From positions 14,054-73,532 of the forward strand of contig JALOLB010000001.1 in the NCBI GenBank assembly GCA_025456225.1: a stretch of DNA of 59,479 nucleotides, in the 5' to 3' direction. Position numbers and translations under genes: made by a program. The notes under the pieces are model-generated. The model searched no databases. It had not been told where the DNA came from and worked only from the letters and a program-made list of their open reading frames with translations. Positions 1-8,969 of this stretch are shown here, piece by piece (positions within the stretch are counted from its first letter, which is position 1; every line of letters begins with the position of its first letter). The DNA is from Thermoanaerobaculaceae bacterium. GTDB lineage: Bacteria > Acidobacteriota > Thermoanaerobaculia > Thermoanaerobaculales > Thermoanaerobaculaceae.

Positions 1-1625
1 GCGGTCTGGGCCGAGCTGACCGATCCCGAATACGGCAGGGTCATCCCACCTGTCGCATCCGTCTGCCAGACGAGGGAGGAACCGTCGGTGCCGAGCACCT
101 TGCCGCTGGCCGCCGTCCCGGAGGCCGAGAGCTTGGCCTGGGTGACCGAGCCGGGGGCGAGGTGCGTGGCGTTGACGACCCCTCCGGCAATCGTGTTGGC
201 GGTCACGGAGCCGAAGGCCAGCATGACGTTCTTGATGCCGGCATCCCTCACCGACAGGAGGACCTCGCCGCTCGTGCCGCCGCCGGTGAGGCCCTCGCCC
301 GCCGTCACGCCGGTGATGTCGCCACTCGAGCCCGAGGTGGCCTGCCACGCCGCGCCCGAGGCTGTGACGGTCAGCACCTGCCCGGTCGTGCCGCCGGTCG
401 TCGCGACCTTGGCCGCAGTCACGGCTCCAGGTGCGAGGTCCGCCGTCCCGACCGCCCCGTCGGCGATCTTGTCGCTCGTGACCGCGTTCGCCGCGAGCAT
501 GCCGCTGACGATCCCGCCCGGGGTCACCGAGAGCGTGACGTCACCAGAGGTGCCACCACCTGCCAGCCCCGACCCGGCGCTGACGCCGGTGATGTCGCCA
601 CCGTTGCCCGAGGAGACAGCCTGCCACGCCGCCCCCGAGGCCGTGACGGTCAACACCTGCCCGGTGGTTCCGCCGGTCGTGGCCACCTTGCCTGCCGTCA
701 CTGCGCCGTTGGCGAGCTTGGCCGTGGTGACGCCGTTATCGGCTAGGGCGAGGGTCACGTCGCCGCTCGTCCCGCCACCGGTCAGACCCGCACCGGCGTT
801 GACAGCGGTGATGTCGCCGCCGCCGCCCGAGGCGTTCTCCGCGAGCAGCTCGTCGCGGAAAGCCATTTCGAACGTCGCCGGGTCCTGGGAGCCGTTGGCG
901 ACGCCCGAGCCGAAGGCGATGACCTTGCCGGTGCCCGACAGCACCTGGACGGTCAGCCGCGCGTTCTGGGTCGAGAGCGAGGGGAACTCGCTCGGGAACG
1001 ACTTCTGCATCTGCTCCCACTGACGCACGGTGTAGGTCCTGGAGGCCACCTCGGCACCGGTCGGGTCCTTCACCGCCACCTTCACCTGGCACGTACCGGT
1101 GCCGGTGGTCTCGACGAAGCCGAAGTTGTACCGGAACGTCGAGTCGGCCGCCGGCAGCGTGCCGTAGGCGCCGAGCAGCTCGGTGGACTGTCCGGAGCCG
1201 ATGGCGAAGGAGGCCGGCGTGCCGGCGAAGAACTGCCCGACCGAGTCCTTGAGCGCTCCGGACTGGGAGTAGATCCGCGACCCGACCAACACCTTGATGT
1301 TGGAGGTGACGCGGATGGCGCCGAACGTCTGCCTGGCGAACATGAGCTGGACGGCGTCCTCGTACCTGGCGGTGTCGCCCGGCTGGATGGTGTCGGCAAA
1401 CGAGACCGGCGTGTGGTTGGCCTGGCGTTCCAGGAGGTAGAACGTGACATTGGCCGCGGTGGCATTGGGGTTGTGCACGTACACCGTGGTGTACCAGACC
1501 GCGGGTGGGGTGCCCGGCTTCGCGCCGACCGACGGCAGGAACACGTCGGTGCCGGTGAACGAGGCGAGAAGTGGGGCAGCGACGGTGAGGAGGAAGGTTG
1601 CGACGGCAGGGACTCTCGGTTTCAT
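1..1625 (-). CDS. Secreted modular fibre-like protein, paralog A of a 4-gene tandem family (partial; 3' end runs off the window)
   Basis: Absent from the ORF track because it has no stop codon in the window. My translation of the reverse strand from the ATG at 1625-1623 (GGAGGT 5 nt upstream) gives [42 protein letters not shown]... This is collinear with the other three paralogs. The frame is still open at position 1 (...[20 protein letters not shown]). Confidence 0.85.
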
Positions 1626-1672
1626 GGTGTACCTCCGGGGCGGATCGGGAACAGGAACCTGAGCTGAAGGTA

Positions 1673-1699
1673 GAGGCCCGTCGGGAAGCGACGGGCCTC
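1673..1699 (-). terminator. GC-rich hairpin between paralog B and paralog A (possible intrinsic terminator)
   Basis: Perfect 11-bp stem GAGGCCCGTCG / CGACGGGCCTC with a 5-nt loop, about 35 nt downstream of the stop of the 1736..4042 gene. There is no clear U-tract, so terminator function is only inferred. Confidence 0.4.
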
Positions 1700-6216: not shown

Positions 6217-6263
6217 GAGGCTCCTCCTCGGTGTGATGGCCAGGGTAGGATGCGGTGAACGCA

Positions 6264-8969
6264 CTACGGCTCCGGATTGGTCTGTTGGGACTGCTGCCGC
6301 TGCGCCTTGATCTCCTGCATGAGGTCGGGATGGGTCGCCCACTCGACGCCGGCCTCCTCCGGCTGGCCGTACAGCTCGGGGTGGAGGTAGGTGCCCCGCT
6401 CGGCCTCGGGCTTCTCCTCCTCGACCTGGATGCGGTGGGCGTTGGCGAAGGCGTCCTGCCGGATGCCGGTGACCTGCCAGGAGACCTTCTGGCCCGGCTC
6501 GCCGCCGGCGATGGCGAAGCGGTTGCCCGCGACCTCGGCGGCGACGTACAGGTCAGGCGCCGGGGCGCCGATCGGCGTGAGCTGGTAGCGGAAGTCGCGG
6601 TTGAGCACCTCGAACCACTCCGGTAGCTCAACCACCGCTTTGCCGTCGGCGTCCAGGACGACGTTGCCGTTGTAGACATTCATCATGTCCGGCGATTCGA
6701 CGAAGGAGTGGTAGAGGTACTTGTTCGCCGGGTCGAGCGGGTGGTCGATCCTGAACGAGCCTGCGCCCTTCGAGAGCGTGCCGGAAACCTGGACGTTGCC
6801 GTTGAAGCTGCCCGCCAGGCCGGTGCCGGTGCTCTGGCCGTAGACGCCGCTATCTGAACCGGTTCCGATCCCGGCCACACCCTCGTTGGGCGTGCCGAGC
6901 ACGCCCCAGTTCGTGCTGTTGGAGCAGAATCCCCGGACGCCCCAGTTACTCGTTGACAGGCCGAAGACGCCAACGCTCGTAGTGCTCACCCCAGACACGC
7001 CGTAAGCCGAAGTGCTAGATCCCTTCACGCCGTCGGATGACGATGACTTTCCTAGGACACCAAACCTCGAAGTGCTGAGGCCTTCGACGCCGTCGCCTGA
7101 CGTGCTCTTTCCCAAGACGCCTACGCCACCCCCCGCGTATCCGGAGACGCCGGCCTTCGAGTCGCTCGAGGTGGTTCCGTACACGCCGTCGCTGGTCGAG
7201 CTGGAGCCGTACACGCCGTAGTTGGACGAGCTAACGCCCACGACTCCGTAGCCGGAGCTGCTATTTCCTCCCACCCCGGAGCTCGAAGTGCTCTCCCCGA
7301 ACACCCCGATGCCCGACGTGGCCTTCCCGTACATGGCCTGCCCGGATCCGTTGTTGGTGACCTTGAGCGCCGCTGCGCTCGCCGAGGCCGAGCCGTCATA
7401 CGGTAATGTGAAGCCTCCCGCGCTCTGCCAGGTGAGCGAGGAGCCGTCGGTGCCGAGCACCTTGCCGCTGGTGGGTGAGCCCGAGGCCGAGAGCTTGGCC
7501 TGCGTCACGGCACCGGCGGCAAGATGGGTCCCGTTCACGACACCGCCGGCAATCGTGGTGGCGGTGACGGAGCCAGCATCGAGCATGTTGTTCTTGATCC
7601 CGCCGTTCTTCACGTAGATGGTGACCTCGCCGCTGGCGCCACCACCGGCAAGGCCGTCGCCGGCGGTCACGCCGGTGATGTCGCCGCCGCCCGACCCCGA
7701 GACCGCCTGCCACGCCGCCCCGCCGGCGGTGATCGTGAGGACCTGTCCGGTGGTCCCGCCCGCGGTCGATACCTTGGGCGCCGTCACCGCGCCGTTCGCG
7801 AGATCCGCCATGCCGACCGACCCGTCCGCGATCTTGGCCGAGGACACGCCGCCGTCGGCGATCATGAGCGGCGAGGCGGTCGTCCCGCTGCCGGCAAGCG
7901 TCGCATCGTGAACCACCGAGGACATCCCGGTGCCGCCGGACGAAGGCGTCTGCCACGCCGCGTTGATGCCGTCCGAGGTCAGCACCTGGCCTGGAGAGGA
8001 TCCAGCCGTAGAGAGCCTCGATGGCGTCACCGCTCCGCTGGCGAGCTTGGCGGTGGTGACGCCGCTGTCGGCCAGGGCGAGGGTGACGTCGCCGCTCGTC
8101 CCGCCGCCGGTCAGCCCGGCTCCGGCGGCGACCCCGGTGATGTCGCCTCCACCGCCCGAGCTGTTCTCCGCCAGGAGCTCGTCGCGGAACGCCATCTCGA
8201 ACGTCGCCGGGTCCTGAGAGCCGTTGGCGACGCCGGAGCCGAAGGCGATCACCTTGCCGGTCCCGGAGAGCACCTGGATGGTGAGCCGCGCGTTCTGGGT
8301 CGAGAGCGAGGGGAACTCGGTCGAGAACGTCTTCTGCATCTGCTCCCACTGCCGCACCGTGTAGGTCTTGGAGGCCAGCTCGGCGCCGGTCGGGTTCTTC
8401 ACGGTCACCTTCACCGAGCAGGTGCCGGTGCCGGTGGTCTCGACGAAGCCGTAGTTGTACCGAAAGGTGGAGTCGGCCGCCGGCAGGGTGCCGTACACGC
8501 CGAGCAGCTCCGTCGACTGCCCGGAGCCGATGGCGAACGAGGCGGGTGTGCCGGCGAAGAACTGGCCGACCGAGTCCTCGAGGGCGCCGGACTGGGAGTA
8601 GATGCGGGAGCCCACCAGCACCTTGACGTTGGAGGTGACGCGCAGGGCGCCGAATGTCTGCTTCGCGAACATGAGCTGGATGGCGTTCTCGTACCTGGCG
8701 GTGTCGCCGGGCTGGATGGTGTCGGTGTATGACATCGGCGTCGGGTTGGCCTGCCGCTCGAGCAGGTAGAAGGTGACGTTGGCCGCGGTGGCGTTGGGGT
8801 TGTGGACCCAGACGGTGGTGTACCAGATCGCAGGTGGGGTGCCTGGCTTCGCCCCGACAGACGGCAGGAATACGTCGGTGCCGGTAAAGCTGGCCAGCGC
8901 TGCGGTCGCGAGCAGGACACTGCAGAGCACAGCAACGGTCCGACAGGTGTGGGGAATGCGGCTTTTCAT
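6264..8969 (-). CDS. Secreted modular fibre-like protein, paralog D (901 aa)
   Basis: Track ORF 6264..9056 trimmed to the ATG at 8969, which has AAGGAGG upstream and starts the signal peptide [26 protein letters not shown]. The N domain is about 90 percent identical to paralog C by eye. It has the longest repeat core, including a long run of G-V-x-G-x-S-[ST]-S units. Confidence 0.9.

Follow-up and report, generated by a model that had tools for sequence, protein, structure and literature searches.

The window analysed here, a stretch of 59,479 nucleotides (nt) from contig JALOLB010000001.1 of the Thermoanaerobaculaceae assembly GCA_025456225.1, a genome with a G+C content of roughly 70%, opens with four successive genes on the minus strand, g1 to g4, which occupy bases 3-8969 and raise the question of what kind of secreted protein they encode and whether the array is built to vary. 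The original prediction had described four consecutive genes that share an architecture (a Sec signal peptide, an N domain, a core of at least three repeat types and a conserved end), and had proposed a diversifying surface or adhesion system, possibly controlled by the adjacent two-component pair. The common beginning was recovered in all four genes, and the three product lengths of 689, 768 and 901 amino acids (aa; g2, g3 and g1, respectively) and the three repeat types were found as described. Our data suggest, with moderate confidence, that the four genes encode exported trimeric surface fibres that derive from phage tail fibres and are analogous to the MAT (mosaic adhesive trimer) proteins of Bdellovibrio. 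Three of the window proteins have exact counterparts (100% identity) in NCBI, where they are listed as 'hypothetical proteins' (MUF10_00085, MUF10_00090 and MUF10_00095).

The IDHPLDP C-terminal domain

The C-terminus of g1-g3 is a 165-aa domain that begins with GSF[RK]IDHPLDP, hereafter the IDHPLDP domain. A conserved C domain of about 190 aa had been described for each gene; this holds for g1-g3 at the shorter length, but the C-terminus of g4 lies outside the window and is probably of another type, the 'alt' tail described below. Pfam gave no match to any part of the window fibre proteins, NCBIfam gave none of relevance to them (a single sub-threshold signal-peptide match), and PDB sequence searches with the whole proteins and with a C-domain profile returned nothing usable. 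Neither the N domain nor the IDHPLDP domain belongs to a curated family, in agreement with the earlier statement that no named family could be assigned to either end.

The IDHPLDP domain, of phage ancestry, belongs to the C-terminal domains of phage tail fibres. Its homologs number 6288 proteins at E-values up to 1e-3, and the best 120 of these 6288 are 61-82% identical (mostly 62-72%) across phyla, the few that carry an organism name including Blastocatellia, Pyrinomonadaceae and Rhodothermales. Among the viral contigs of IMG/VR the domain was found in 482 stretches at 35-59% identity, always at the extreme C-terminus, with at most 55 and usually about 25 residues beyond it; the viral open reading frames (ORFs) that bear it reach about 3000 aa, the shorter ones being interrupted by contig ends. 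In the two viral contigs that we inspected, the gene lies within the structural module and adjoins those for major head, tail and virion proteins. Cultured phages also carry the domain (tblastn): it is present in the tail fibre PSSM2_295 of the Prochlorococcus phage P-SSM2, in P-SSM5, in S-TIM54 and in the minor tail protein gp19 of Arthrobacter phage Mufasa8, and the structural matches in BFVD are tail-fibre and minor tail proteins. The BFVD matches to Mufasa8 and P-SSM2 had at one point been assigned to the shaft, an assignment that was dropped since tblastn shows homology to the C domain.

Structure prediction followed by Foldseek, proposed as a check along with the original prediction, gave a weakly tailspike-like sandwich for the C domain and a recognisable fold for part of the N domain (see below). 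The AlphaFold2 (AF2) model of the C domain (predicted local distance difference test, pLDDT, 87.7) shows a small beta-sandwich followed by a terminal helix or helices, and its best PDB matches, consistent but weak, are C-terminal sandwiches of fibres and spikes, namely those of the cyanophage Pam1 tailspike, the Klebsiella phage K64-1 depolymerase, the phi297 and Sf6 tailspikes, AP22 gp53 and the R-type pyocin fibres.

We also observed four proteins of 170-300 aa (P0189, P0207, P0209 and P0237), on contigs of 110-890 kb, that consist almost solely of the IDHPLDP domain. They may represent the domain in stand-alone form, or else longer fibre genes whose starts were mis-called.

The N domain and its distribution

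All four products open with a typical Sec type I signal peptide, recognised by eye from its K/R n-region, its hydrophobic core and its (L)LA/SF site, and the cleavage predicted in the same way falls directly before the conserved mature N-terminus beginning SF[TS]. The N domain that follows, common to g1-g4, is about 240 aa long and ends at about aa 264-269; in the AF2 model of g2 it is all-beta and two-lobed, with a pLDDT above 90.

This domain is cellular and lineage-restricted, almost only to Thermoanaerobaculia-type Acidobacteriota. An exhaustive search gave homologs in 1729 clusters at 50% identity, and in nearly all of the 150 clusters listed the domain stands at about aa 25-270, straight behind the signal peptide. 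A genome scan returned 137 relatives, of which almost every one lies in a metagenome-assembled genome (MAG) of Thermoanaerobaculia, Holophagae or other Acidobacteriota; some of these MAGs hold at least 12-14 genes of the fibre family per assembly as dispersed copies. Among the 2.9 million viral contigs of IMG/VR the N domain had no match.

Foldseek with the full-length model found TM1070 and the transducer of sensory rhodopsin from Anabaena (ASRT; 1nc7, 2ii7-2ii9) at an E-value of 1.7e-4 and with template modelling (TM) scores of 0.70-0.78 relative to the target. A position of this match in the C domain was ruled out, as the model of the C domain alone has no ASRT match, and we therefore assign it to the N domain, one lobe of which resembles this fold. 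Beside this fold match, the Pfam search gave no sequence-level match of PF07100 (ASRT) to the window proteins.

A fifth secreted protein of about 1218 aa is encoded in the window at 37083-40736 (+), with TSPDGxxW beta-propeller-type repeats (DUF6242 match) and an IPT/TIG domain. Its C-terminus consists of two tandem domains distantly akin to the fibre N domain's first lobe (profile E-value 2.3e-11 over the entire ORF; motif LF.GV.R..G...S.WRSE..L.N), and we therefore place the N-domain fold in a wider family of domains of secreted proteins that has no Pfam entry.

Modular shafts and tails

Between the N domain and the C-terminal module, each of the four genes encodes a Gly/Ala/Thr-rich shaft. 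Large modules of 75-90 aa, in which AKLA-like units are followed by GQVLT..AWQ, number three in g1, two in g3 and three in g4, and the g2 shaft holds one degenerate module. Units of the form G-[VI]-x-G, spaced mostly by 8-13 residues, number about 16 in g1, where they follow an exact 10-residue period, nine in g2 and seven to eight in g3. Tail-fibre families of PHROGs gave weak matches that fall in the shaft.

The family is modular, a single N domain being joined to at least three unrelated tails. In a census of the N-domain ORFs from loci selected via the N domain (n=119), the tail was IDHPLDP in 56, a module that we call 'alt' in 16, Peptidase_S74 in 10, and other or truncated in the remaining 37; a few members of the family carry Cys-rich tails or NHL propellers. 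The S74 tails of sister genes match PF13884 and have SDxRxK motifs (e.g. P0330, P0297 and P0308). The 'alt' module, of about 140 aa, reads GGADFAELLP..EPGDVL..PVKASAENGxIxPGDLLV..PGHAMRA..GKAL..G.G.V..LV.L, and is carried by genes of two other genomes (L004, 10001-12724; L163, 634-3186) as well as by many proteins of our P series (e.g. P0244 and P0258). In the first two, the 907-aa protein L4c (P0089) of L004 and the L163 gene, the tail runs GGADFAELLP..PVKASAENGAIRPGDLLV..GHAMRA..GKAL..LVMVR. It has no Pfam match, and hhalign finds it unrelated to S74 or IDHPLDP; among the three main tails no relation was detected (probability <1%). The possibility that IDHPLDP is a divergent S74 domain was ruled out by hhalign against the S74 tails (probability 0.2%). 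The Pfam search gave no PF13884 match in g1-g3, which are thus of the non-S74 tip type, nor in P0064, a homolog from Thermoanaerobaculum aquaticum that is named Peptidase_S74 in UniRef.

The fourth gene reaches the edge of the window, and a contig of the Joint Genome Institute (JGI) from the same population terminates at exactly the same base, inside g4. An exact DNA pattern search of metagenomes for the 3' end of g4 gave no match, and a protein-based scan for its continuation led to the close ortholog in L163. Over 540 aa g4 is 84.6% identical to L4c, and it is 86% identical to the L163 gene in the shaft. Since these two nearest relatives end in 'alt', which is unrelated to IDHPLDP, the tail of g4 is probably of the 'alt' type as well.

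The position of the IDHPLDP domain also bears on a different view of these proteins, as secreted enzymes or toxins of fibre shape, in which the domain would be catalytic (e.g. a metal-dependent, glycan- or peptidoglycan-degrading activity) or a self-cleaving folding module, and not the tip of an adhesin. Its extremely high conservation, in which D, H, E, S, R and K residues are invariant (D529, H530, H541, E545 and D548 among them, in g2 numbering), its presence in phages of unrelated hosts and its occupation of the place held by the self-cleaving S74 chaperone in sister genes would agree with such a role. However, the domain resembles neither S74 nor any family of enzymes, it contains no recognised catalytic motif, and its fold is a small beta-sandwich resembling the C-terminal domains of tailspikes, so that we regard this view as rather unlikely.

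The proteins could also form a structural matrix or envelope layer, that is, an S-layer-like nap or a biofilm scaffold, much as BclA forms the nap of the exosporium, without specific recognition. The many paralogs, the Gly-rich repetitive shafts, the conserved anchor domain and the vicinity of some loci to glycosyltransferase clusters (as in the L001 array, below) would all suit a layer of this kind. We nonetheless find it quite improbable, given that the C-terminal modules are varied and swappable, the NHL propellers and Cys-rich tails among them suggesting diverse binding functions, and that no co-conserved assembly genes were found.

Divergence among the paralogs

Within the array, the N domains of g1, g2 and g4 share 89-91% aa and 86-89% nt identity, that of g3 is 67-69% (aa) and about 75% (nt) identical to the others, and the C domains of g1-g3 share 68-75% aa and 76-80% nt identity. 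The N and C blocks of three of the paralogs had been thought nearly identical in nucleotides, which these values contradict; the remaining one (paralog B, here g3) had been singled out as clearly more diverged, and it does have the most diverged N domain. In a pairwise nucleotide alignment, another of the checks proposed at the outset, identity was 75-89% and there were no long identical blocks, the longest identical run measuring 53 nt (over the aligned 5' 950 nt, which comprise the upstream region and the N domain). The Nei-Gojobori synonymous divergence (dS) between paralogs is 0.33-0.84 in both domains, and the nonsynonymous divergence (dN) is about 0.06-0.08 in the N domain, against 0.18-0.29. 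Because of this dS and the low dN, the conservation of the N domain is better ascribed to constraint than to recent copying, and recent gene conversion is ruled out by the dS and by the length of the identical tracts. As judged from their sequences, the paralogs are old.

A syntenic locus in GCA_053578155.1 (L004) has the regulator and the kinase described below and, divergently, three fibre genes of 708, 767 and 907 aa (L4a, L4b and L4c), so that copy number is four in the window and three there. Gene g3 is 74, 80 and 76% identical to L4b in the N domain, core and C domain, respectively, and the cores have the same length of 344 aa; g2 and its positional ortholog L4a are 73, 66 and 80% identical in the same order. 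The cores of orthologs are therefore largely static between species. The number of large shaft modules does vary between orthologs, with three in g4 and in L4c and two in the L163 gene. A survey of related genomes had been suggested for copy-number and core variants; variation in copy number and in shaft modules was found, but not variation of the orthologous cores at large.

The alignments nevertheless show an array with a mosaic history. The g2 core and C domain are nearest to L4a, but its N domain is 84-89% identical to those of g4, g1 and L4c and only 73% to that of L4a, an affinity that shows past homogenisation or replacement of the N domain. Furthermore, g1 follows the g4/L4c type collinearly over about 715 aa (67% identity), diverges inside the Gly-rich decapeptide region and then ends in IDHPLDP instead of 'alt', a tip swap.

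The same features could be expected of a programmed diversification, in which cores or tips would pass often between the tandem copies, through gene conversion or cassette recombination, and a surface antigen or adhesin would so be varied within the population. The conserved N-terminal block beside variable cores, the past homogenisation and tip swap, the difference in copy number between related genomes and the fact that two assemblies break inside the array (the JGI contig and L163), which would fit repeats or population heterogeneity, speak for it. Against it stand the dS between paralogs and the short identical tracts, C domains that are just 76-80% identical in nucleotides, the conserved cores of orthologs, the completeness of every copy at the 5' end, with a start codon and a signal peptide and no silent cassettes, and the lack of any recombinase, invertase or reverse transcriptase among the genes annotated over the 10 kb past g1. 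We consider programmed diversification very unlikely, and the known systems of this type (pilE/pilS-type cassettes, vls and diversity-generating retroelements) were rejected as models, since the copies are 5'-complete, their flanks share 75-89% identity and no identical run above 53 nt, and no associated enzyme is annotated in those 10 kb. Diversification is real but slow, a swapping of modules over evolutionary time with no sign of an active variation mechanism. Of the diversifying surface or adhesion system that had been proposed, the modular secreted fibre-like proteins and the exchange of modules remain, but there is no sign of an active gene-conversion or cassette system; what is new in the array is not a diversity-generating mechanism but MAT-like chimeric fibres in another phylum.

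We also observed a second four-gene fibre array in GCA_053578155.1 (L001; JBHKWV010000012.1, 5172-14555), with products of 836, 650, 709 and 747 aa, one of which (L1b) has a degenerate N domain without the FLPSVG motif. It adjoins a Ser/Thr kinase and a large protein with tetratricopeptide repeats (TPR), with a glycosyltransferase cluster downstream.

Gene neighbourhood and regulation

The coordinates of the fibre genes, their domains and the adjoining regulatory genes are given in Table 1.

Table 1. Fibre genes, their parts and the adjacent two-component genes in the 59,479-nt window (strand '.', not stranded).
Feature	Residues	Position	Strand	Remarks
g1		6264-8969	-	901 aa; identical to MUF10_00095 (P0003)
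g1 signal peptide	aa 1-26	8892-8969	-	
g1 N domain	aa 27-269	8163-8891	-	
g1 shaft	aa 270-735	6765-8162	-	3 large modules, ~16 G-[VI]-x-G decapeptides
g1 IDHPLDP C domain	aa 736-901	6267-6764	-	
g2		4147-6216	-	689 aa; identical to MUF10_00090 (P0001)
g2 signal peptide	aa 1-21		-	
g2 N domain	aa 22-264	5425-6153	-	
g2 shaft	aa 265-522	4651-5424	-	short
g2 IDHPLDP C domain	aa 523-689	4150-4650	-	
g3		1736-4042	-	768 aa
g3 signal peptide	aa 1-21		-	
g3 N domain	aa 22-264	3251-3979	-	diverged
g3 shaft	aa 265-604	2231-3250	-	
g3 IDHPLDP C domain	aa 605-768	1739-2230	-	
g4		3-1625	-	first 541 aa visible; 3' part beyond window edge
g4 signal peptide	aa 1-21		-	
g4 N domain		834-1562	-	
g4 shaft modules		3-833	-	three modules
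g1/histidine kinase intergenic region		8970-9100	.	131 bp, divergent
Inverted repeat GAGGTGT-N10-ACACCTC		9017-9040	.	perfect 7-nt arms, within 8970-9100
Sensor histidine kinase		9101-12229	+	1042 aa; Reg_prop propeller repeats, then HisKA_3 and HATPase_c; divergent from g1
Response regulator, NarL/LuxR type		12291-12962	+	223 aa; Response_reg and GerE

Long overlapping ORFs in other frames and on the opposite strand were also observed within 88-8732, for example at 2174-4027 (+, 617 aa) and 4186-6258 (+, 690 aa). These ORFs are artefacts that arise from a repeat-rich sequence of high G+C content, and they reappear as spurious 'families' when the loci are clustered.

The synteny of the kinase with fibre genes is conserved. 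Its orthologs adjoin fibre genes in three other genomes, at 75% (L004), 39.5% (L020) and 36.7% (L075) identity, and the response regulator is conserved together with it in all three. For this one locus such conservation speaks in favour of a functional link, and the propeller-type kinase and the LuxR-type regulator beside the array probably control it. The control by the two-component pair that had been put forward as a possibility thus gains from the three further genomes, but the pair is present at only four of about 80 loci of the family. Other family loci adjoin other regulators (Ser/Thr kinases, sigma-54 activators and Trans_reg_C-TPR proteins), at frequencies that may be due to chance. 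A promoter scan found no convincing sigma-70 site in the 131-bp region between g1 and the kinase, and the inverted repeat within it is not kept in L004 or L020 according to the alignment and may itself be a chance occurrence; a conserved operator in this region was ruled out, as that alignment showed no motif common to the intergenic regions.

Further neighbours are genes for a small Cys-rich protein, a TPR protein, an M28 peptidase, an OmpA-family protein, LepA and a YkuD transpeptidase; the neighbourhood of the array is ordinary chromosome. That the fibres belong to a prophage or tailocin, remnant or active, and are attached to a phage-like particle instead of the cell is extremely unlikely, even though the C domain and the shaft repeats are shared with phage tail fibres and sister genes bear Peptidase_S74 chaperone domains, given that all copies have Sec signal peptides, that the N domain is absent from the viral contigs searched, that neither this locus nor L001, L002 and L004 has genes for heads, tails, baseplates or lysis within 10 kb, that some genomes hold at least 14 dispersed copies and that chromosomal synteny is kept across genomes.

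A single integrase was found, at a distance of 44 kb from the array. It is a tyrosine recombinase (Phage_integrase and Arm-DNA-bind_3; 52888-54306, +) in a region of slightly low GC (0.66 at 52-54 kb), with no tRNA gene beside it, and it may mark the edge of an integrated element. Elsewhere in the window we noted a 1256-aa secreted-type protein with LVIVD repeats, a beta-helix and Big_6 domains (47904-51671, +) and a 413-aa secreted-type protein with several PAN domains (20609-21850, -), which are uncommon in bacteria. An 88-nt tRNA-Met called by ARAGORN at 30879-30966 (-), antisense to the start of a YkuD-family ORF (30733-32469), is probably a false positive.

Proposed function of the fibres

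Taken together, these results could be explained if tandem paralogs of a large Thermoanaerobaculia-type family encoded Sec-exported proteins derived from phage tail fibres, which would trimerise into fibres. The invariant N domain would attach each fibre to some constituent of the producing cell's surface, probably a glycan. How far the fibre reaches would depend on the shaft, and the C-terminal module would cap or fold the trimer or bind a ligand, so that the set of paralogs would offer a repertoire of lengths and tips. Diversity arose on evolutionary time scales by duplication, gain and loss of repeats, tip swapping and occasional conversion of the N domain.

Trimerisation, surface display, adhesin function and regulation are inferences, and several observations weigh against this interpretation. 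The AF2 monomer of g2 leaves the shaft (aa 263-500) without secondary structure, and the structural matches of the C domain have E-values of just 3.5e-3 to 0.06. The clustering of neighbours at 82 loci revealed no outer-membrane export or anchoring partner conserved beside the fibre genes, and a conserved secretion or assembly partner was rejected on the same data, which gave only assorted regulators at frequencies compatible with chance. The N domain, at about 240 aa and with two lobes, also differs in size from the MAT N domain of about 130 aa, the likeness being one of design. Finally, conservation of the C domain is unusually high if it is taken as a receptor-binding tip, and phages of hosts as different as Arthrobacter and Prochlorococcus carry it. 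This conservation and spread of hosts are better accommodated by a role in capping or folding than by specific adhesion, and suggest general capping or folding, or the binding of a ubiquitous ligand, rather than host-specific recognition.

A more ambitious interpretation would combine a MAT-like arsenal of a dozen or more chimeric fibres per genome, independently assembled or anciently shared, with IDHPLDP as a new universal capping or folding module and with an array switched on by a glycan-sensing propeller-type kinase; as a whole we hold it to be doubtful. If true, a lineage-specific anchor of sugar-binding type fused to phage tail-fibre shafts and tips would point to an unrecognised contact-dependent lifestyle (for instance predation, epibiosis, or the capture of particles or glycans), and IDHPLDP would be a functional parallel to the S74 chaperone. 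Apart from this, two large domain families stand outside the curated libraries, the N 'anchor' with about 1700 clusters and IDHPLDP with more than 6000 proteins, including those of cultured cyanophages and actinophages. The function of IDHPLDP, once defined, would improve the annotation of phage receptor-binding proteins, and the conserved link with the propeller-type kinase offers a testable handle on regulation. Our literature search found no paper on this fibre family in Thermoanaerobaculia, and the supplements of the MAT paper make no mention of Acidobacteria.

Comparison with known systems

Trimeric autotransporter adhesin, a label that JGI gives to some of the homologs, was rejected as a description of these proteins, as the Pfam and NCBIfam searches at E up to 1 gave them no YadA-type membrane anchor, head or stalk domain and their C-terminus is a soluble beta-sandwich with a helix. 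With the S74 fibres and tailspikes, such as the K1F endosialidase and the L-shaped tail fibre pb1 of T5, they share the arrangement of the C-terminus, IDHPLDP taking the same terminal position and sisters with the same N domain ending in PF13884; however, the window proteins lack S74, and IDHPLDP is a beta-sandwich with a terminal helix. The likeness to phage fibres (PSSM2_295, Mufasa8 gp19 and those in IMG/VR) lies in the C-terminal domains, which are homologous at 34-59% identity and stand at the end of a long repetitive protein, and in the window shaft repeats, which match tail-fibre PHROGs. In contrast to the phage genes, each of those in the window encodes a Sec signal peptide and, behind it, a cellular N domain that the viral contigs lack, and they form a multi-copy chromosomal family outside any virion structural module.

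The N domain can be compared with the ASRT/TM1070 superfamily, to which part of it has a fold match. ASRT-like sandwiches are predicted sugar binders and extracellular versions of them exist (De Souza, Iyer and Aravind 2009, PMC2739507). The fibre N domain differs in having a second lobe and no sequence match to the superfamily.

The system that resembles the array most in design is the MAT superfamily of Bdellovibrio bacteriovorus, 21 tail-fibre-like proteins of strain HD100 that are displayed on the surface of the predator (Caulton et al. 2024, Nat Microbiol, PMC10769870). In these proteins a beta-rich domain, conserved and about 130 aa long, reported to have no PDB homologue, comes right behind the signal peptide and is followed by a trimeric shaft, and the tips, which have been swapped in evolution, are either S74 chaperones or modules of an unrelated kind, namely beta-sandwich, TNF-like or lectin (PMC10769870). 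Unlike that domain, the fibre N domain matches the ASRT/TM1070 fold. The best 50 PDB fold matches of either of our models indicate that the solved MAT tips are not close structural matches to IDHPLDP. Thermoanaerobaculia, a little-studied class of Acidobacteriota with mostly uncultured members, belong to another phylum and have no known predatory lifestyle, and the genes described here form a tandem array beside a two-component system. Both families, on the other hand, consist of tail-fibre-like proteins encoded by the cell, in which the signal peptide leads directly into a beta-rich N domain that is conserved, the shaft is long and repetitive and the C-terminus is formed by S74 or an unrelated tip, and in both the tips have been swapped in evolution. 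Both also comprise many paralogs, 21 in HD100 and at least 14 in some of the MAGs studied here. If our interpretation of the array as exported, tail-fibre-derived surface fibres is right, chimeric fibres of this type would be a recurrent bacterial strategy and not a peculiarity of Bdellovibrio.

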